Shown here piece by piece: positions 32,404 to 48,333 of a DNA stretch of 64,000 nucleotides. The stretch covers positions 250,284-314,283 of the forward strand of contig JAXLYI010000006.1 in NCBI GenBank assembly GCA_046351555.1, read 5' to 3'. This stretch comes from Polyangiales bacterium (GTDB lineage Bacteria > Myxococcota_A > Polyangia > Polyangiales > Ga0077539). Numbering within the stretch: the stretch's first letter is position 1; each line of letters begins with the position of its first letter. A model generated the notes under the pieces. It had not been told where the DNA came from. It did no database searches and saw only the letters and a program-made list of their open reading frames with translations. The translations under genes were made by a program, and so were the position numbers.

Positions 32404-34708
32404 CTACGGCGTCGGCCGGAAGCGGATGCGCGTGCCCGTGGTGTTCGAGCACACGGCGCCGCCGGAGGCGCAGCCGAGCGCGAAGGGCCCGGCGTACCCG
32501 GGCGAGCGGAACCCGACGATCCCGATGCGGCCGGCGGCGAGGATCGTCCCCTCCTGCGTGAGGACGTCGACGGTGCCGTCGGCCTCGTTGAGCACGGCCT
32601 CGGTGGTGATCGAGCCCCCGGCGGGCGCGCTTGCGAGGCGGCTGCCTGCCCACTCGACGACGAAGCGCCGCGAGGGCGAGGCGCCGACGGTGGCGACGCA
32701 CACGCCCTCGGCGCTCGACACGAGGTCGGCGAGGAAGGGGACGACGCCGTCGAGCGCGGACTCGGAGCCGATCGGGCCGCTCAGGGTCATGTTGAACGAG
32801 GGGTTGAGGGAGAAGAACCCGTTGGAGGAGATCCGCACCGCGCTGCCCACCCGGTAGAGCCGGTCGAAGAAGGGGAACGCGAACGGGAGCGCGGACTCCG
32901 CGAAGGCGTCGTCGGCGTTCCGCAGCACGTGGGCGGCCCCGGGCGCGGCGCAGGCGTCGACGAAGGTCGCCGACGCGGGCGGCGCCTCGCGCGCGTACGT
33001 CTGGGTCGGCACGAAGGGGACGCACGCGCCCGCGCGGCAGTGGCCGGAGGCGCGCGGGCCCGTGCCGCAGGCGCGGCCGCACGCGCCGCAGTGGGCGGGG
33101 TCGCTCTGCAGGTCGACGCACCAGCCGTCGCATGCGGCGAGGGGCGGCGCGCACGCGGCCGGCGCGCCCACGGCGAAGGTCGCGGGGCAGTGGCCGACGT
33201 ACGCCCGCCCCGCCGCGCCGCCGACCTCGCTCGCGCCGCTCTGGGACCAGAACCACCGGCCGCGCGCCGGCGACGCCGTGAAGCCGTCGGGCGGGGGCGA
33301 CGCGAACGTCCGGAGCACCGTGGTCTGCCCGTCGGGCACGCGCACCCGCACGGCCTGATCGCCCATCATGCCCGCGAGGTAGAGGTGGTTGTCGAAGAAC
33401 TCCGCCACGCCCGCGCGGAGGTTCGGGACCGCCCACATCCAGCCGAGGTGGACGACCCGGCCCGTGGCGAGCGAGAGGTCGTAGAGGTCCCACCGGTCGA
33501 CCTGGGCGAGGGATTCGACGACGAACACCAGGCGCCCCGCGCCCGGGACGACCCTCGGGGAAGCGCGGACGGTGCTCTCGTTGAGGTCGACGACGGGGCT
33601 CAGCGCGATCCGACGCGCCGCCGGCCCCGACGGGTACGCGTCGTTCTCGTAGAGCAGCGCCGGGGAGTTCGACCACGGCACGGTCTCCTCGCGGAACATG
33701 CCGACGTCGTTGTGCCACACGAGCGCGGTAGGCGGGCCGGGGGAGCAGCGCGAGCGTGTCGATGTCGTGCTCGAGCAGGCCATCCCCGCCGACGATCGGG
33801 CTGGCGTAGGGGGGCCCCGGCTGTTCCACGAGGCGGCACCCGTCGAGGGAGAGCGAGGTGATCTGCAGCGTGGGCGTGGGCGTGGGCGGCGGGGCGGCGC
33901 ACGTGCCCGCGGCGCACCCCAGGCCCGCCCCGCACGCGCGCCCGCAGACGCCGCAGTTCGCCGGGTCGGTCGCCGTGTCGACGCACGCGCCGCAGAGGGT
34001 CATGCCCGGCGGGCACGCGCAGACCGCGCCAACGCACGCGAGCCCCGCCGCGCACGCGCGCCCGCAACCGCCGCAGTGCGCCGCGCTCGCGCCGGTGTCG
34101 ACGCACGCCCCGCCGCAGCGGGTCGTCCCCTCGGCGCAGGCCGCGTCGGGCGCGACGTCCGGGGCCGCGTCGATCGTCGCGTCGTCCGCCACGTCGTCTG
34201 CATCGCCCGCGTCATCCGACACGTCATCGCCCGCGTCCGCGAGCTCCGCGCCCACGAAGCCCTCGCTGAAGTGCGTGACCTGCGCGGTCAGCGCCGCGCC
34301 CGTCACTGCACCGCCCAACGGCTCGTAGCCCGTGCCCCCGCGCCGCGACCAGTAGAGCTGCGCCCGGCTCGGGTCGCCCGAGAACGCCAGCGTGACGGAC
34401 AGGGGGCGCGCGAACGTGATCCCCTCGGGCGAGGCGCGGTACACCGGCGAGTAGCCCGTGTAGCCCGCGGGCACGGGCGCGGCGGTCGGCACGATCGAGA
34501 GATCGACCTCGCGGTCGAGCGCGCCCGAGGGCACGACGACCGTGATCGCGCGCCCGACGAGCGTCGCGCCCCCCGGCCCCACCCGGCCCTGAACGCCCGG
34601 CGACGTCGGCGCATCGGAGGAGGCGTCGGGCGCGACGGCCGGGCCCTCGCACGACGGCAGCGCCGCGGCGAAGAGGGCGCACGAGGGCCAAAGACGGCGC
34701 GGGTCCAT
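32404..34708 (-). CDS. Secreted myxo-type Cys-rich repeat protein with an apparent frameshift
   Basis: Signal peptide. Repeats of CGGACVDTxxDxxNCGxCGxAC. Two frames (794-aa and 459-aa ORFs) join if one C is removed from the C5 run at + strand G5 33738-33742. Confidence 0.55.
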
Positions 34709-39063: not shown

Positions 39064-39866
39064 GCCCCGGATGTACGGACCTCCGCGCGCAGACCCGCCA
39101 TGTCATTTTCGGACGTCGCGCCCGCCACGAGGCGGCGCGCCGAACGAGCGGTCACGCGCGCGAGCGCGGCGGCCCAGTTGGTCGCGGTGAGCGGCACGAG
39201 GCCGAGCACGAACTCGCCGTTCACGTGGCCCGGGTTGATGCGGGCGTAGAAGGCGACGTCGGGGTCGCGCAGGGCCTCGGGCTCGATCGCGACGTTGCCG
39301 TCGACGTACACGAGGTCGGCGTAGGGGTTCGCGCCCGCCGACGGCTTGTCCATCGCGTCGGTCACAGAGGCGAGGAGCGCGCGCTCGCGCGCGGGCGGGG
39401 ACGCGTCGGGGCGGGGCCAGTACTCCGCGAAGTTGCGCGGCATCAGCAGGTAGCTCTTGTACGAGCTCGCCGCGAAGAGCCAGTAGACGCGGCGCCCCGG
39501 GTGGGCTCGGCGCTCGCGGAGGTAGTAGCGGAAGCCCACGCGCTGGATGACGTTGCGCCCGCGCAGCGCGGGCAGGAGGCACACGCGGCCGGTGAAGATC
39601 AGCGTGTGCGGGCGGCCCTGCCACTCGGGGCGGAAGACGCGCACGCCGCCGAAGCCGACGACGGCGCCCGCCTGCGACACGACGAAGACCTCGTCCATCG
39701 CGCGCAGCCCCTCGGCCATCACCTCGCGCGTGGTGCGGGCCACCGTGCGGAAGACCTCCCACAGCGCGTCGAGCTCGCCGTCGGTGAGCGCGTCCGCGCG
39801 CCGGTACTCGATGTGGAACGGCGCGGCGGCGGCGTGGCGGGGGGCGACCGTGATGGAGGGCGTCAT
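39060..39866 (-). CDS. Hypothetical protein (possible acyltransferase-like fold)
   Basis: Real-looking composition from MTPSITV. The N-terminal part of the listed 554-aa ORF is junk. It heads an ATGA-coupled operon and is divergent from the RNA ligase. Confidence 0.4.
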   Translation of the reverse strand: MTPSITVAPRHAAAAPFHIEYRRADALTDGELDALWEVFRTVARTTREVMAEGLRAMDEVFVVSQAGAVVGFGGVRVFRPEWQGRPHTLIFTGRVCLLPALRGRNVIQRVGFRYYLRERRAHPGRRVYWLFAASSYKSYLLMPRNFAEYWPRPDASPPARERALLASVTDAMDKPSAGANPYADLVYVDGNVAIEPEALRDPDVAFYARINPGHVNGEFVLGLVPLTATNWAAALARVTARSARRLVAGATSENDMAGLRAEVRTSGA

Positions 39867-40100
39867 CGTCCGCGACGCAGTGCAGCCGCGGTGCCGTACG
39901 CGTTTCCGCGGGAGATGCGGGGCTCGCGCGTGCCGCGAGGGCGCGTCGGCCTCGTGGCGCGTCCGACACGGCGTGGCGCCGGCGCGACGCCCCCAGGGTC
40001 CGTGCGTGCTGACGCGCTCCGCCCCGCGCGTTGCCCCGCGGCGCGCCGCTGCTACCCTGCGCGCCCCTCCATCCCCTCGCGCTGCCCCGAGGCGCCCGCC

Positions 40101-40772
40101 ATGAGCCCCACCGACGAAGCCCCGCGCCGCCCCGACGGGCGCGTGAAATACCCCCGCACGCACCACCTCCCGTGGAGCCCCGGGCGCACGAGCGACGACC
40201 GCGTCCTCGAGTCGCTCGCGGGCTTCGAAGGCCAGGACGTCGTCGTCACCGCGAAGATGGACGGCGAGAACACCACGCTCATGCGCTCGTGCCTCCACGC
40301 GCGCTCGCTCGACTGGGAGCCGCACCCGTCGCGCACGATGATCAAGGCGCTCCACGCGCGCGTCGCCGACGACATCCCCGAGGGGTGGCGGCTCTGCGGC
40401 GAGAACCTCCAGGCCGTCCACTCGATCCGCTACGCGAACCTCCCCGACGTGTTCCTGCTGTTCTCCGTGTGGGACGAGAAGAACTGGTGCCTCTCGTGGG
40501 GCGAGACGCTCGACTGGGCCTCGCTGCTCGACCTCGCCACCGTGCCCGTGCTCTACCGCGGCCCGTGGGACGAAGACCTCGTGCGCGGGCTCTACACCCC
40601 GACGCTCGACGGCGACGCGTGCGAGGGCTACGTCGTCCGCACGAGCGAGGGCTTCCCCTACGCGGACTTCAAGCGCCGCGTGGGCAAGTACGTGCGCGCC
40701 CACCACGTGCAGACCGACCAGCACTGGATGCGCCGGGCCGTCGAGCTCAACGGGATCGTCAGGAAGCGGTAG
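40101..40772 (+). CDS. ATP-dependent RNA ligase family protein (Rnl2/PF09414-like nucleotidyltransferase)
   Basis: N-terminal KYPRTHHLPWS. KxDG adenylylation motif TAKMDGEN. About 223 aa. Confidence 0.6.
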   Translation: MSPTDEAPRRPDGRVKYPRTHHLPWSPGRTSDDRVLESLAGFEGQDVVVTAKMDGENTTLMRSCLHARSLDWEPHPSRTMIKALHARVADDIPEGWRLCGENLQAVHSIRYANLPDVFLLFSVWDEKNWCLSWGETLDWASLLDLATVPVLYRGPWDEDLVRGLYTPTLDGDACEGYVVRTSEGFPYADFKRRVGKYVRAHHVQTDQHWMRRAVELNGIVRKR

Positions 40773-40808
40773 CGGGAAGGCGGAGGCGGGGCGGAGGGAG
40801 GGGCGCGG

Positions 40809-41126
40809 TCACTCGACCGGCGAGGCGAGCCCGCCGCTGCGCGGGATCGGGATCTGCGGCGTGGGGCCGGCGAGCTGGAGATCGCGGGCCGGGAGCGCGG
40901 GCTCGGGCAGGGGGATGCCCTCGCGCGTGCCCTCGGGGACGCGCACGGCGTCGACCGCGGCGGGGAGGCTCGCGCGGACGTCGTGCTCGTGGCCCGACGC
41001 GACGGCGACGAGGCCGCTCCGCGTGGTGGCGAACACCGGGGACGCCGTCGTCACGGAGGAGGAGGCGCAGCCCGTGAGCCAGGCGCCGAGCGCGGAGGCG
41101 AGGAGCAGGGCGGACAGTCGCTTCAT
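40809..41126 (-). CDS. Small lipoprotein
   Basis: MKRLSALLLASALGAWLTGC lipobox. ATG overlaps the stop of the upstream regulator gene. Confidence 0.4.
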   Translation of the reverse strand: MKRLSALLLASALGAWLTGCASSSVTTASPVFATTRSGLVAVASGHEHDVRASLPAAVDAVRVPEGTREGIPLPEPALPARDLQLAGPTPQIPIPRSGGLASPVE

Positions 41127-44100
41127 GACTCGGGAGTATCGGTCGGATCGGACCCCCTGGCAAGGCCGTACTCCCGCACGAGCTGGGAGAGCCGCGGGCG
41201 CTTCATCCCGAGCAGCGCGGCGGCGCGGGTGATGTTGCCGCCGGCCTCGTCGAGGGCGCGCGCGATGCAGCCGCGCTCCACCTCGCGGCGCATGTCGAAG
41301 AGCGACACGCCGCCGTGCCGGATGCGGTCGTAGACGGCGTCGACCTCGTCGCGCGCGGCGGGCGCAGGCGCGGCGGGCGCGGTTGTCGAGGGCGCGAGTG
41401 TCATGGGCGCGCGCACCAGCTCGGGGAGGCCCTGGAGGTCGTCGGGGGCGATCTCGTCGCCGTCGGCGAAGAGGGCCGAGGCGCGCAGGACGTTCTCGAG
41501 CTCGCGGACGTTGCCCGGCCACGGGTGCTCGGCGAGCCGCCGCAGCGCCGCCGCGGTGAGCCGCCGGGGCGCCGCCTCCCCCGCGTCGCGCTCGAGGAAC
41601 CACGCCGCCAGCAGCGGCAGGTCTTCGAGGCGCTCGCGCAGCGGCGGGAGCTGGATGGTGAGCGACGAGAGCCGGAAGTAGAGGTCCTCGCGGAAAGTTC
41701 GGTCGCGAACCATCTGGGCGAGGTCGCGGTTGGTGGCGGCGATGATCCGCACGTCGACCTTGAGCGTCTCGTTGCCGCCGACGCGTTCGAAGGTGCGCTC
41801 CTGGAGCACGCGCAGCAGGGCGGCCTGGGTGGCCGGCGTCACGTCGCCGATCTCGTCGAGGAAGATCGTGCCGCCGTCGGCGAGTTCGAAGCGCCCGCGG
41901 CGGCGGCGGTCGGCGCCGGTGAAGGCCCCGCGCTCGTGGCCGAAGAGCTCCGAGAGCAGCACGCCCTCGGCCAGCGCCGCGCAGTTGACCTTCACCAGCG
42001 GCGCCGCCCGCCGGTGCGAGCCCTGGTGGAGCGCCTCGGCCACGCGCTCCTTGCCCGTGCCCGACTCGCCGTGCAGGAGCACCGTGACGTCCTGCGGCGC
42101 GACGCGCGCGATGCGTCGCCGCAGCTCGCGCATCGCCGCGCTCTCCCCGATGAGCCCGTGGCCCGTCGCGCGCACCGCCGCGGCCGGCGCGGGCCGCGGT
42201 CGCTCCGTCGGCGCCGCGCCCCCGGCGCCCTCCAGCCGCGCCGCGAGGAGCGCGCCGCCGCCGCGCGCGAGCTGCGCCCCGTACGACACCCGCAGCGCCT
42301 CGGGCACGCGCGCGAGGATCTCCTGCCGGAGCGCCTCGGCGAAGCCCGCCTGGCGCCGCGCGGCCGTCGGGTCGTCGCGGTCGAGCAGCGCCATCCCGAC
42401 GGCGACGTGGGCGCGGTAGCGGAGGTCGCGGTCGCTGGTGGCCTCGGCCAGCTCGAGGGCGCGGCGCGCGTGGGGAAGGCGTCCTCGCCGCGGCTGCGCG
42501 CGAGCTCGGCGGCGAGGAGCGCGCGCTCGACCCGCGCGGACGGGGCGCCGCCCTCCTCGGGCACGAAGGCGAGCTCGGCCTCGGCGCGCGGGAGGTCGCC
42601 GTCGACCAGGGCCGCGCGGGCGAGCAGGAGCCGCGCGTCGGCCTGCTGGAGCGCGTCGCCGACGGCGGCGAAGACCCCGAGCGCCTGGCCGAGCGAGGCG
42701 CGGGCGGCCTCGGTGCGCGCGTCGGCGAGCTCGACGCGGGCGCGGAGCATGAGGTTCTCCGCGGCGATGGGGCCGGTGAAGCCGCGGGCCACCTGGGCGG
42801 CGTACTCGCAGAGCCGCCGGGCGCGCGCCACCTCGCCGACGTGGGCGTAGAGCTCGCCGAGGTTGTGCGCGACGCGCGCGAGGAAGCGCCGGTTGCCCAC
42901 GCGCGTGAGGATCCCGAGGGCCTCCTGGTAGCGCTGGAGCGCGTCGCCGTAGCGGCCCTGGAGGTGCGCGACGACGGCCTCGTTCTCCCGCAGCACGCCG
43001 CGGAGCATCATCGAGCCGGCGCCGTCGGCCACCGCGCGCGCCTCGCCGAGCTGGCGGGCCGCCTCGTCGAGGTCGCCGCGCCAGATCGCCACCACGCCGA
43101 GGTTGATGAGCCCGCGCAGGATCTCCGTCCCCGCGCCCCGCGCCCGCGCCCGCTCCAACCCCTCGCGCGACCACTCCCACCCCGCGTCGAGCTCGCGCCG
43201 CGCGAGGAACACCTTCGTCATCGTGTTGCGCGCCCGCGTCGCCACCGGGTCGACGTCGCGCGACAGCGCGATCGCCTCCCGCGCGAGGCGCTCGGTCTCG
43301 TCGAGGCGGCCGCGAACGTACGAGAGCTCCGCGCGCAGCGCCGCGTTGGCCGCCCGCTGGGCGGTGTCGTCGTCGCGGGTGCGCGCGTCGGCCCGCCCGA
43401 GCGCCGCCTCGGCCGCGTCCCAGTCGCCCGCGCCGAGGGCGAGCGAGGCGTCGAGGCGCGGGAGCTCCGGGTCGTCGGGGGCGACGCGCTCGGCCGCGGC
43501 CACCACCGCGCGCGCCTCCGCGTGGGCCGCGATCGGGGGCGCCGCCGCGGCCGCGACGCGGGCGAGCTCGCGCGCGGTGTGGGGCGCGGCGTGCGGCGAG
43601 GCGAGGTGCGCGAGCGCGAGCGCCGACGCGGGCGCGTGACGTCGCAGGAGCGAGCGGGCAACGGCGACGGCCTCCGCAGCGGCCTCGGCGGGGCGGTCGC
43701 CGGCGAGTCGGTGGAGGACGGCTTCTTCGGGCGACGCGCGGCCCCAGGCGTCGAGCGCGACCCCGAGCGACTCGCGGAGGATCAGCAGCTCGCCCGCGTC
43801 GAGGCGCGCGAGGGCCGCCTCACCCTCGTCGTGGCGCGCGAGGCCCACCACCACGTCGCCCGCCGCCGGGTCGAGCGCGCGCCACGCCGTCGAGGCCGCG
43901 ATCAGCGTCGGGATCGCGCGGGTGACCGCCTGCGCGTCGACCCCGAGGGCCCCGGCCACCACGCCCGCGGGCAGCGGCCGGTCGGCGAGGCTCAGCGCGG
44001 CGAGCACCCGGCGCGGCAGCTCGCCGAGCTCGTCGAGGCGCGCGGCCACCTCGCTCTCGCGCGGCGGCGGCAGGCGCTCGAGCATCGCGAGGACGGCCGC

Positions 44101-44808
44101 GGGGTTGCCCGACGTCGCCGCGTGCAGGCGGGTGACGGCGGCCTCCGTGACGAGGATGCGCCGGACGCCGTCGGGCGAGAGGCCCTCGAGTTCGAAGCGC
44201 TCGGCGCGCGGGTGGTCGAGCGGGTCACCGAGATCGGCGGCTCGGATGCCCGCGACGAAGAGGGCCGCGGGCGCGCCGGGCGTGGGCTCGCCGGCGGGCC
44301 CGGCGGCGTCGAGGAGCGCGCGCACCAGGGCCCGCGTCGCGTCGTCGGCCCGCGACCAGCCGCGCAGGAGCACGAGCACCGGGCGCAGCCGGGCCACCGC
44401 GGCGAGCAGCCGGGCGACGGCCTCGGTGAAGCGGATCGCGGCCTCCTCGTCGCCGTCGTCGAGCGCGTCGCCCTCGCGGGCCCGCGCCGAGCGGGCGCCG
44501 ACCAGCGGGGCGAGGGCGTCGAGGTCGGCGGGCGAGAGGAGGTCCTGCGCGTCGCGGGCGCGCAGCCAGGCGAGGGCCTGCGCGGCGATCGGGACGAAGG
44601 GCGCGTAGGCCGCGTGCCGCACGCACCAGCCTTCGAGCGCGGGGAAGCCCGCCGCGCGGCACTGCTCGCGGAGCTCGTCGAGCAGGCGCGACTTGCCGAT
44701 GCCCGGGGGGCCGGTGACCGTCACCATCGACGCGCCGTTGGCCCCGGTGGCCTCGAGGCGCGAGGTGACCCACGCGAGCTCGCGCTCTCGTCCGACGCAG
44801 GCCGTCAT
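41123..44808 (-). CDS. Large AAA-ATPase/TPR/sigma-54 activator/HTH regulator with an apparent frameshift
   Basis: N-terminal Walker A VTGPPGIGKS and TPR-like repeats (938-aa ORF). C-terminal sigma-54 interaction domain (GESGTGKE, GAFTG, ESELFGHE-like) plus Fis-type HTH (685-aa ORF). The frames join if one C is added at the C4 run (+ strand G4 42473-42476). Confidence 0.65.
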
Positions 44809-45536
44809 GGCCCGGCGGTTCTATCACCACCGCGCGCCGCGACGCCATGGAGCACCAGCTCGATCAGCGCGCCGGTGACGGCCTCCGGCGAGCCGATCGC
44901 GCCCTCCGAGAGCGTGCGGAAGAGGATCGCCTCCACCGCCCCGAGCACCGCCGCCGCGCTCACCTCCGGGTCGACCGGGCGCAGCAGCCCGTGCGCGCGG
45001 CCCGCGAGGGTGAGCGCGAGGGCCCCGTCGCGCAGCGAGCGCGCGAGGGCCGCGATCGGGCGGCGCGCGCCGACGCCCGGGGCGCGCGACTCCTGGAGGT
45101 AGAGCCGCGCGACGGAGGGGTGGTCCATCAGGGCGGCGCCGCAGTCGGCGGCGAGCGCGGCGTAGGCGGCGACGAGGGCGCCGGGCTCCTCCGCGGCGCG
45201 CAGCGCGGCCTCGCAGCGCGCGAAGGCGTCGCGGAGCCGCGCGGACACCGGCTCGAGCAGCGCGTCGACCACGTCGGCCTTGTCCTTGAAGTACGTGTAG
45301 AAGCTGGCCTTGGAGACGCGGGCCCGCGCGGCGATGTCCTCCACCGCCACGGCCTCCACCCCCTGCTCGAGGAAGAGCCGCAGCGCCGCCGTGGCGATCG
45401 CCTCGGTGCGGGCGCGGCGCCGGCGGTCGCGGGGCCCCCCCTCGGGCCCGGGCCGCTCCTCGGGCACGCTCCGGGGCTCGACCCGCACGCGCTTCACCCG
45501 CGGGCTTGACACGGCGCCCCCGCGGGGTAGATGCAT
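44805..45536 (-). CDS. TetR-family transcriptional regulator
   Basis: HTH AIATAALRLFLEQGVEAVAVEDIAARARVSKASFYTYF. The stop overlaps the regulator ATG. The start is probably an internal GTG. Confidence 0.8.
   Translation of the reverse strand: MHLPRGGAVSSPRVKRVRVEPRSVPEERPGPEGGPRDRRRRARTEAIATAALRLFLEQGVEAVAVEDIAARARVSKASFYTYFKDKADVVDALLEPVSARLRDAFARCEAALRAAEEPGALVAAYAALAADCGAALMDHPSVARLYLQESRAPGVGARRPIAALARSLRDGALALTLAGRAHGLLRPVDPEVSAAAVLGAVEAILFRTLSEGAIGSPEAVTGALIELVLHGVAARGGDRTAGP
45506..45533 (+). promoter_or_regulatory. Candidate sigma-70-like promoter (TTGACA-N16-TAGATG) in the TetR/hydroxylase divergent region
   Basis: Perfect -35 hexamer and a weak -10, about 45 nt upstream of ATG 45578. 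Confidence 0.3.
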
Positions 45537-45577
45537 TGACCAGACGGTCGGGTTTTCAACGCACGCACGGAGCCCCC

Positions 45578-46135
45578 ATGATCGGAATCCCCCTGGCGCT
45601 CGCGGCCTTCAACGCGAGCGAGTGGCTGGTCCACCGCTACGTCCTCCACGGCCTCGGCCGGCGCAAGGGGACCTACTGGAGCTTCCACTGGCACGAGCAC
45701 CACCGCAACGCGCGGCGCCACGGCATGGACGACAGCGACTACCGCCGCGGGCTGCTCGGGTGGCACGCGCAGGCCAAGGAGGCCCTCGGGCTGGGGCTCT
45801 CGGCGCTGACGCTCCTGCCCCTGGCGCGGCGGGCGCCGTGGTTCGTCGCGACGGCCTGGGCGTGCCACGGGTACTACTACTACGTGCACCGCCGGTCGCA
45901 CCGCGACCCGGCCTGGGCGCGCGAGCACCTGCCCTGGCACTACGACCACCACATGGGGCCCAACCAGCACGCCAACTGGTGCGTCACGTACCCCTGGTTC
46001 GATCGGGTGATGGGCACGCGCGAGCCCTACGTCGGCACCGACCGGGAGGCGGCCGACCGGGCGCGCGCGGCGAAGCGGGCGGGGCGCGGGGGCGGGGCCG
46101 ACGACGCGGTGGAAGCGGGCGCGGTCACCGCGTGA
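45578..46135 (+). CDS. Fatty-acid hydroxylase/sterol desaturase superfamily membrane protein
   Basis: Histidine boxes HWHEHH, HRRSH and HYDHH. Divergent from TetR. Confidence 0.7.
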   Translation: MIGIPLALAAFNASEWLVHRYVLHGLGRRKGTYWSFHWHEHHRNARRHGMDDSDYRRGLLGWHAQAKEALGLGLSALTLLPLARRAPWFVATAWACHGYYYYVHRRSHRDPAWAREHLPWHYDHHMGPNQHANWCVTYPWFDRVMGTREPYVGTDREAADRARAAKRAGRGGGADDAVEAGAVTA

Positions 46136-46511
46136 CCTCGCCCCCGGCGGAGCGCGCCGGGGTCTCGTCGCCGACGTACTCCACGGCGGTGCCCACCATG
46201 ATCCGGCGCCCGCGCGTGGGGCGGCTGGTCACGTCGATGATGGCGTCGGCCTGGGCCTCGCAGCCGCCGAGGGCGAGGTGCTGGCGGCACTCGGCCTCCT
46301 TCGACTCGCCGCACTCCGCGGTCACCACGGCGAAGGCCTCGCGGGGCTGGTCGGGGCCGTGGTCGTTGTGAACCGGCAGGGACTCGGGCGTGCAAGCCTC
46401 TGCACGGGGGGCCCGGCGGTCGCCCATGCGCCGGACGTGGTGCGACGGTGACACGCACCCGAAGGCCGAGGCGAGGGCGAGGGTGGAGAGGAGAACAACG
46501 AAGCGGGGCAT
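46125..46511 (-). CDS. Small Cys-containing lipoprotein
   Basis: MPRFVVLLSTLALASAFGC lipobox. The listed ORF's N-terminal extension is rejected. Confidence 0.4.
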   Translation of the reverse strand: MPRFVVLLSTLALASAFGCVSPSHHVRRMGDRRAPRAEACTPESLPVHNDHGPDQPREAFAVVTAECGESKEAECRQHLALGGCEAQADAIIDVTSRPTRGRRIMVGTAVEYVGDETPARSAGGEVTR

Positions 46512-46711
46512 CGCGCGGATGATCGACGCAGGGCCGGTGCCCTGGCAATCACCTTCGCGGTGACGAACCCCATGGATCTGCGACGGCGTCTCGAGGTGCC
46601 GCGAGGACGGGGGAGCCCCCCGCGTCGTGGCCGGGATGGCGGTCCCCCATTCGGAGGGACCCACCGACGCGCCACGAAGCTCTTTCTCCAACATCAGCGC
46701 ACACCGTCGCC

Positions 46712-46733
46712 CCGTCGCAGATCGATGGGGTCC
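46712..46733. repeat. 22-bp direct repeat, copy 1 (ccgtcgcagatcgatggggtcc)
   Basis: Matches copy 2 at 20 of 22 positions. Intergenic. Confidence 0.5.
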
Positions 46734-46980
46734 GTTGTGGGCGCGGGATGTGAGATCCAGCGAAAGCCTCCGGTGACCGCGACCACGTCCGAAGTTGGAG
46801 CATGGTCCGTGCCGACGCTCGCGAGGGCGCAGCCGCGGGCGCGGGGAACCTCAACGATCTACGCCGGCGCCGCGGGCGGCCAGGTTGGCTGGTCCTCCCC
46901 CGGACCCGGAGTTCCGAACCGCCCGTCAAGTGCCCCCACTGTATGGGTCCTTTCAAACAGCCTCGTGGGAGCGAACGGCG

Positions 46981-47002
46981 CCGTCGCAGATCGTTGGTGT
47001 CC
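46981..47002. repeat. 22-bp direct repeat, copy 2 (ccgtcgcagatcgttggtgtcc)
   Basis: Matches copy 1 at 20 of 22 positions, 269 bp downstream. Confidence 0.5.
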
Positions 47003-47343
47003 TCCAAAAATGAGCAGACTGCTCAGTGCAACGGACAGACCGTCCTCGCCAAACCCTGCAACCCTCGAAACTCCGCAGTTTTCCTGAGAAATCCGCGGCC
47101 CTCACGATGCTCCCTAGCTACCCGAAGATGCAGTCGAGCATCGCGTGGGCGGAGGCGACCAACGCGCGGATGTCCCTGTGCAGCAAGGGGATGTGCTCGA
47201 ACATCCACCGCGCATCCCCCGGCGCGGCGTCCAGGGCGAGGGCGCTGGTTGGACGTTCCCGTCCACTGGGGGAGGGCCCCTGGCACGGTGCGGGCCGCCG
47301 GAAAGTGGGCGGCGTTGCACCGGTGCGACGATACTCGCGATCG

Positions 47344-48333
47344 ATGCAACCGCAGCCCGCCGCGCCCGATCTCCGCATGGTCGACCTCCGCTCGGTGCGC
47401 GTCCCCCCCTGGCGGCTCCGGGCGCTGGGTGACCTCGACGCCCTGCGCGAGTCGATCGCAGCCGCCGGGCTCCTCCACCCGATCGTGGTCGACCCGTCGC
47501 TCACCCTCGTGTGCGGGATGCACCGCCTCGAGGCCTGCCGCGCGCTCGGGTGGGAGACCATCCCCGCGCTCGTGACGTCGCTCGAGGGCCCCTACGCCCA
47601 GCTCGCCGAGGTGGACGAGAACCTCTGTCGACGCGAGCTCACCGTGCTCGAGCGCGCCGAGCACATCGCCCTCCGCCTCAAGCTCTGGGAGCAGACCCAG
47701 CCCCCGCCCCCCGAAGAGGCCGCCGCGAAGAAGAAGCCCCCGAAGCGCGCCGAGGCCCCGCTGGTGGCCTTCCTCGACGACACCGCGCGCCGCACCGGCC
47801 GCGGCAAGGCGGCGGTGCGCGAGGAGCTCCGCATCGGCGAGCTCCCCGAGGACGTGCGCGCCACCGCCCGCGAGACGCCCATCCACGACAACAAGCGCGA
47901 GCTCCTCGCCCTCACCCGCATGCCCGAGGAGGAGCAGCGCCGCGCCGTCCAGGCCGTGCGCGACGGCGAGGCGAAGAGCGTCCGCAAGAAGAAGCCCCCG
48001 CGCCCCAAGAGCGCCCCCGAGGCGGGCGAAGCCGCGGGCGCCGACGCACCCCCCGCGGGCACCGGGGGCCTGGTCGCGTCCGCGCTCCCCGAGGAGGAGG
48101 CGCCCACCTGGTCGCAGGACGGGAGCGCCTTCCTCGAGGAGCGCGCGCGCGCCGACGTGATCCGCATCGTCGGCGAGCTCCAGCGCCTGCTCGCGAAGGC
48201 CGGCACGCTCTGGACGTCGCAGCGCGACGAGAGCGGCGAAGGGCGCGAGCGCCTCGACGACGCGACGCGCGCGGTGGGCCGCCTCGCGCGCTGGATGGAG
48301 GGCGCCGGCGAGCCCGCCTCCGACGCCGCCTGA
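47344..48333 (+). CDS. ParB/Spo0J-like protein (orphan, no ParA)
   Basis: ParB N-terminal box LLHPIVV ... GMHRLEACR. HTH region ELRIGELPEDVRA ... LTRMPEEEQ. K/P-rich low-complexity segments. Confidence 0.6.
   Translation: MQPQPAAPDLRMVDLRSVRVPPWRLRALGDLDALRESIAAAGLLHPIVVDPSLTLVCGMHRLEACRALGWETIPALVTSLEGPYAQLAEVDENLCRRELTVLERAEHIALRLKLWEQTQPPPPEEAAAKKKPPKRAEAPLVAFLDDTARRTGRGKAAVREELRIGELPEDVRATARETPIHDNKRELLALTRMPEEEQRRAVQAVRDGEAKSVRKKKPPRPKSAPEAGEAAGADAPPAGTGGLVASALPEEEAPTWSQDGSAFLEERARADVIRIVGELQRLLAKAGTLWTSQRDESGEGRERLDDATRAVGRLARWMEGAGEPASDAA

Follow-up and report, generated by a model that had tools for sequence, protein, structure and literature searches.

A sigma-54 activator with a STAND-TPR regulatory region in a Polyangiales genome, divided between two reading frames by a probable homopolymer miscount

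Bacterial enhancer-binding proteins such as NtrC, NifA and PspF carry a Sigma54_activat domain with GAFTGA loop and Walker A and B motifs, an AAA lid and a C-terminal Fis-type helix-turn-helix (HTH), and have receiver, GAF, PAS, V4R or FHA domains as regulatory regions. STAND proteins (signal transduction ATPases that have numerous domains) of the MalT and PH0952 type (PDB code 6MFV) are built from a P-loop domain, a winged helix with an arm and a tetratricopeptide repeat (TPR) sensor, in that order (PMC6468293, PMC10427625). At rest they are closed, ADP-bound monomers, and an inducer at the sensor leads to opening, ATP uptake and multimerisation (PMC6468293; see also PMC10427625). Here we analyse a gene that appears to bring the two kinds of module together, a regulator gene on the minus strand of a 64,000-nucleotide stretch (the window; positions 250,284 to 314,283 of contig JAXLYI010000006.1, assembly GCA_046351555.1) from a Polyangiales metagenome-assembled genome (MAG). 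The gene is divided between two reading frames in the deposited sequence, in our view probably through a miscounted homopolymer.

The window protein has every part of the enhancer-binding proteins named above, from the complete Sigma54_activat domain to the C-terminal Fis HTH, but its regulatory region is a predicted STAND NTPase with TPR of about 780 residues. With MalT and PH0952 it shares the order of P-loop domain, winged helix with arm and TPR sensor, whereas its effector is a C-terminal sigma-54 AAA+ domain with Fis HTH in place of the LuxR-type (MalT) or ArsR-type (PH0952) DNA-binding domain, and the Walker B acidic pair is Arg-Gly both here and in all aligned relatives. Streptomyces AfsR (SARP-NOD-TPR; PMC10936776) is likewise an activator whose DNA-binding and activating module is fused to NOD and TPR; its effector is an N-terminal SARP module of OmpR type working with sigma-70-type polymerase, unlike the C-terminal, sigma-54-specific effector of the window protein. 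Finally, giant myxobacterial regulators of kinase-AAA_16-TPR-GAF-sigma-54 layout (1400-2100 residues, from Sorangium and relatives; P0042-P0119) are 41-58% identical to the window protein in the sigma-54 module, and many of them have AAA_16 and TPR. They add an N-terminal Ser/Thr kinase and a GAF domain, both absent from the window protein, and those examined keep a normal Walker B motif (for example LAIDDLQWAD).

At the 76% G+C of the window, long open reading frames (ORFs) arise in many frames, and ORFs therefore need outside support. Two minus-strand ORFs, 41992..44808 (938 residues) and 41123..43180 (685 residues), overlap each other in different frames. In Pfam the first matches AAA_16 (E = 4.9e-21, residues 4-169), TPR_12 and TPR_MalT (489-770) and the second Sigma54_activat, AAA_lid_14 and HTH_8, which bears out the original prediction, made from the letters of the window, that AAA/TPR and sigma-54/Fis domains of one regulator lie in two frames. 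In a Viterbi pass over the whole window, self-trained on codon usage, the coding frame switches at about 42460, and the upstream frame stays free of stops for a further 469 nt. The coding strand reads GCC TTC CCC ACG at 42480-42469, and one C added to its C4 run gives a stop-free frame of 1228 residues with the reading ...EDAFPHARRALELAEATSDRDL... at the junction; the repaired peptide EDAFPHARRALELAE has an exact match in P0001 (98% identity, 1228 residues). No uninterrupted frame from sensor to AAA+ domain occurs in the window, where the break falls at 42472-42475. Repair by one extra C at this run had been predicted, correctly as to site and peptide, although the coordinates given, 42473-42476, were one base off. 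The parts of the gene are as follows.

42472..42475: homopolymer run, G4 on the plus strand and C4 on the coding strand, one base short of the C5 of relatives
42472..44808, minus strand: 5' part of the regulator, codons 1-779 (M1 to P779), with STAND-type nucleotide-binding domain, winged helix with arm and TPR sensor
41123..42472, minus strand: 3' part, read in the other frame, which starts with H780 (CAC, 42472-42470), ends with the stop codon at 41123-41125 and encodes the final TPR helices, followed by a linker, the sigma-54 AAA+ domain and HTH

A search with the repaired protein returned full-length relatives (1217-1249 residues, 54-98% identity, 100% coverage), of which 33, each a single ORF, were aligned; the alignment, A1, thus holds 34 sequences, the repaired window protein and these 33. 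On the contigs L001, L082, L083 and L084, too, the regulator reads as one ORF of 1224-1228 residues. Four relatives of about 800 residues appear to stop where the frameshift sits, and in both that were checked, P0219 and P0250, a natural split was rejected, the genes being cut by contig ends. Because the orthologs, whose comparison the original prediction had proposed, are contiguous, no split is shared with them at this point. Judged by these orthologs, the regulator is one 1228-residue gene, and a conserved two-gene arrangement is excluded. As a separate observation, contigs repeatedly break off within distant homologs of the regulator, close to where the TPR module finishes (L088 2059-4431, L089 1173-3545, L090 2415-4831); assemblies may fail ahead of the highly conserved, multi-copy sigma-54 domain.

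The relatives nearest in nucleotide sequence bear directly on the C run. L001 (GCA_009612935.1) is 95.8% identical to the window over 7.1 kb and has C5, the sole indel inside the coding sequence. L086 matches window 42675..39755 with 99.6% identity over 2922 bp, and C5 in place of C4 is again the only indel; the product of its partial ORF (517 residues) is 100% identical to the repaired protein, and the 8 nucleotide differences from the window in its regulator part (1554 nt) are all synonymous. The k141 name of L086, an ENA contig, is in MEGAHIT style, so that this contig probably comes from a short-read assembly. When metagenome contigs were scanned for the exact pattern with either C4 or C5 permitted, only the contig of L001 matched, with C5. 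Compared with L001, the relative of about 96% identity, the ratio of nonsynonymous to synonymous polymorphism (pN/pS) is 0.11 overall, with 0.07 for the part upstream of the shift and 0.17 for the part downstream. At near-invariant alignment columns the repaired protein has one substitution, which it has in common with P0001, against 1-6 in intact relatives, and none that is private to the window.

Beyond the missing base, the gene shows no sign of decay. The C5 of L086 together with its unchanged amino acids, the low pN/pS and the lack of private changes at conserved columns favour an assembly artefact, and an old pseudogene is rejected on the last two counts. We give a probability of about 0.7 to the reading that the split is a homopolymer miscount of sequencing or assembly, with C5 recorded as C4; the organism probably makes the full-length regulator. 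The choice originally proposed, between a sequencing error and recent pseudogenisation, still stands, now with orthologs known to be contiguous.

The second member of that pair we consider rather unlikely. It takes C4, which is after all what the given sequence reads, as a very recent frameshift of the strain, a nascent pseudogene or a strain variant, and the product would be a 779-residue sensor with a 159-residue nonsense tail and no regulated activator. Real mutations by slippage at G/C runs are common. The mutation would nevertheless need extreme youth: other decay is absent, the differences from L086 in the regulator are synonymous throughout, pN/pS is low even downstream of the shift, conserved columns carry no private changes, and 33 of 33 aligned full-length relatives are intact. 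Truncated copies occur in other assemblies, namely P0025 (936 residues) and P0035 (724 residues), and P0025 has several short frame excursions, one of them near the same region, that look like assembly errors. These copies indicate that indel errors are present in other MAGs of this high-G+C clade, and the source assembly of the window may be indel-prone as well.

Several points weigh against a miscount, and against the function we propose for the regulator below. L086 differs from the window by 11 other substitutions and so comes from another strain or sample rather than from one and the same molecule; C4 could be genuine in the strain sequenced here. By our own estimate, 0.4% divergence corresponds to about 250 substitutions per 64 kb, which leaves room for one or two real frameshifts, and homopolymer runs are places where genuine slippage mutations arise too. 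A second gene of the window is disrupted, which could reflect genuine decay, and two disrupted genes among about 55 lie within the range of real pseudogene loads. The mechanism set out below was drawn from domain homology alone, and no target promoter was found in the window, where matches to the sigma-54 consensus TGGCAC-N5-TTGC with up to 2 mismatches number 25 against 44 expected by chance.

The second disrupted gene is the only other long coding segment of the window that lacks a terminal stop in the Viterbi pass; all others of at least 400 nt have an in-frame stop no farther than about 145 nt from their end.

32404..34708, minus strand: second frame-broken gene, with a switch at about 33728, adjoining a C5 run at 33739-33743

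Its product is an MXAN_6577-like cysteine-rich secreted protein (PF04885/Stig1) whose N- and C-terminal halves lie in different frames, and homologs of 779-831 residues cover 77-84% of the repaired product. The source record annotates only a C-terminal piece of 438 residues (MFO0603738.1, U0324_11220). The 68% ortholog P0122 reads through the junction but carries 16 additional residues at it, so that either a miscount or a real 3n+/-1 deletion could underlie this break. We found no protein record for the two pieces of the regulator, which would fit annotation as a pseudogene. These missing records, the second broken gene and the origin of the window in a MAG (contig of 534,330 bp) speak for an assembly that may be prone to indels.

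A split that serves a function was also considered, by programmed -1 frameshifting, by transcriptional slippage, or with the halves made separately as a free sensor and, from an internal start, a sensor-less and constitutively active sigma-54 activator. Removal of the regulatory domain activates several enhancer-binding proteins, and 55-61 codons downstream of the shift there are in-frame GTG codons preceded by AGGA or GAGG. We nonetheless hold such a split to be highly improbable. TTC CCC ACG contains no slippery heptamer of the X XXY YYZ form, C4 is too short for transcriptional slippage, and the closest relatives have C5 and hence need no recoding; programmed frameshifting was rejected on these grounds. 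No natural split forms were found, the two shortened relatives checked being those cut by contig ends, and in the structural model described below the break falls inside the TPR array, in a loop between helices about 105 residues before the AAA+ domain. With the miscount as the preferred reading, both fragments should be merged in annotation as one gene flagged 'frameshifted, probable assembly error at a C5 run', not listed as a STAND protein and an orphan activator, and other gene calls of the source MAG are possibly affected by indels.

The motifs and domains of the repaired protein, with conservation in the 34 aligned sequences, are these.

44689..44712, minus strand: Walker A GPPGIGKS of the N-terminal STAND domain; G33, G36, G38 and K39 invariant
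44359..44379, minus strand: strand VLVLLRG (residues 144-150) at the Walker B position of the same domain, with Arg149-Gly150 replacing Asp-Asp/Glu
42047-42070, minus strand: Walker A GESGTGKE of the sigma-54 AAA+ domain; residues invariant
41912-41929, minus strand: GAFTGA loop, the sigma-54 contact; residues invariant
41846-41866, minus strand: Walker B IFLDEIG of the sigma-54 AAA+ domain; residues invariant
41651..42154, minus strand: sigma-54 interaction AAA+ domain (PF00158)
41189..41290, minus strand: Fis-type HTH (HTH_8, PF02954, 1e-08), the DNA-binding output; C-terminal residues near-invariant

The match to Sigma54_activat (PF00158) spans the full profile (1-168 of 168) at 234.5 bits (E = 7.2e-70), compared with a gathering cut-off of 20.2. 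By these matches a complete sigma-54 AAA+ activator with intact motifs makes up the C-terminal 350 residues, and the Fis-type HTH follows. No NCBIfam equivalog cut-off was reached by the regulator (NifA came nearest, with 375 bits against 529), and no GerE/LuxR HTH was matched in it by Pfam. An antiviral STAND (Avs) defence protein was considered and rejected: PADLOC matches are to RtcR-like models through the generic sigma-54 AAA+ domain only, with nothing on residues 1-870.

For the N-terminal part, a search of PDB sequences returned generic TPR proteins only, and the relationship to STAND proteins surfaced by fold. Residues 1-777 were modelled with AlphaFold2 from 38 aligned sequences (mean predicted local distance difference test 89.5, predicted template modelling score 0.86); the model comprises a P-loop domain of alpha/beta type, a region of helices and a beta hairpin (308-323) that looks like a winged helix, and an all-helical repeat array at 326-772. 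Among PDB folds the STAND-TPR protein PH0952 (6mfv_A) matches best (E = 6.9e-12 over 743 aligned columns, 14% identity), and the remaining matches listed are at E = 1.7e-07 or worse and mostly plain TPR proteins. On the model, the N-terminal 780 or so residues are a MalT/PH0952-like STAND module of P-loop domain, winged helix with arm, and TPR superhelix.

One feature sets this module apart. The STAND Walker B pattern hhhhD[D/E] is absent from the regulator; Arg149 is invariant in 34 of 34 sequences of A1 (pattern hhhhL-R-G), and residues 144-149 form a beta strand in the model. More distant relatives with the same layout have hhhhD(D/L), and paralogs and the kinase-STAND proteins also retain the Asp. 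Since the Walker B acid is here an invariant Arg, nucleotide is probably bound but not hydrolysed by the N-terminal domain, which would leave the sigma-54 module as the sole working ATPase.

The layout had been thought uncommon, a view that the survey of relatives contradicts. An exhaustive search with the N-terminal 777 residues against clusters of 50% identity found 38 cluster representatives with E<=1e-30 and 586 with E<=1e-10, most of the full-length matches measuring 1200-1360 residues; the order AAA_16-TPR-Sigma54_activat-lid-HTH_8 was present in all six relatives sampled (1223-1297 residues), and the same layout is seen in the 33 orthologs and in dozens of these clusters. Public records name the proteins 'sigma 54-interacting transcriptional regulator', and a limited search of the open literature found no paper describing a STAND-regulated sigma-54 activator. 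The regulator is a member of a populous, unstudied family of STAND-TPR-sigma-54 activators, numerous in Myxococcota and beyond, in which two different ATPase switches are placed in one transcription factor.

The regulator lies between two genes with which it shares short overlaps.

44805..45536, minus strand: TetR-family regulator gene, first of the apparent operon (TetR_N 1.3e-14; TetR_C_24 1.8e-05, just under cut-off)
40809..41126, minus strand: gene for a 105-residue lipoprotein with lipobox LTGC and proline-rich C-terminal motif IPLPEPALPA..GPTPQIPIP

Both 4-nt overlaps that had been predicted are confirmed and have the form ATGA, made of the TetR TGA and the regulator ATG on one side and of the regulator TGA and the lipoprotein ATG on the other. 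The TetR gene is upstream of the regulator in L001 and L082, not in L083 and L084, so that a link suggested by the overlap holds among the closest relatives and not generally. The gene may actually start a few codons further downstream (its relatives encode 230-235 residues), and no NCBIfam equivalog was reached by its product. The lipoprotein gene is more constant: all loci examined, among which regulator identity falls as low as 54%, have an ORF of 103-108 residues after the regulator with the same overlap (L001 6044-6358, L082 11684-11998, L083 11684-11995, L084 11672-11998). In the alignment of these lipoproteins (A3) the Gly-Cys of the lipobox (G19, C20) is invariant and the proline motif is kept. 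No Pfam or NCBIfam family was matched by the lipoprotein, which is MFO0603746.1 (U0324_11260) in the source record. From the ATGA overlap, its gene is predicted to be translationally coupled to the regulator, and TetR, regulator and small lipoprotein genes form what appears to be an operon-like unit.

If the regulator works as its homologs suggest, a ligand or partner on the TPR sensor would relieve autoinhibition of the STAND core and drive self-association, which would gather the AAA+ domains into an active ring on upstream DNA sites, the AAA+ ring being the only form in which enhancer-binding proteins act. Such a ring would spend ATP to open closed complexes of sigma-54 RNA polymerase at -24/-12 promoters. 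A bolder proposal, which we think quite unlikely, is an uncharacterised class of sigma-54 activator in which a non-hydrolysing STAND switch acts as the gate and the co-translated proline-rich lipoprotein is the ligand or partner of the TPR sensor; the sensor might then, for example, detect unexported lipoprotein precursor as an envelope or export signal. The STAND core without Walker B and the conserved lipoprotein partner supply concrete hypotheses, and neither observation alone alters the current view of sigma-54 regulation.

With regard to promoters, the region ahead of the operon held no sigma-54 site conserved in relatives. The window lacks rpoN, and an Rfam scan of it gave no matches. 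A weak -24/-12-like match, CGGCACGGACCATGCT at 46799-46814 (minus strand), is conserved at L001 352-367 and is no better than background. It lies about 290 nt upstream of a gene for a 128-residue lipoprotein (46125-46511), within 829 nt (46524-47352) that lack coding signal and are rich in indels compared with L001.

The gene divergent from the TetR gene, at 45506-46135 (plus strand), encodes about 190-209 residues with histidine-box-like motifs HWHEHH, HRRSH and HYDHH and without a match in Pfam or NCBIfam. The TetR regulator could plausibly act on this gene. On the other side, an RNA_ligase gene (PF09414; 39885-40760, plus strand) is convergent to the operon and has the same position in L001, L086 and L087. 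Shortly beyond the RNA-ligase gene synteny with L001 is lost (from about 40008 downwards in the window, from 7146 in L001); there L001 has an FHA-sigma-54 activator and a 1327-residue EGF-repeat protein, while the window and L086 continue differently.

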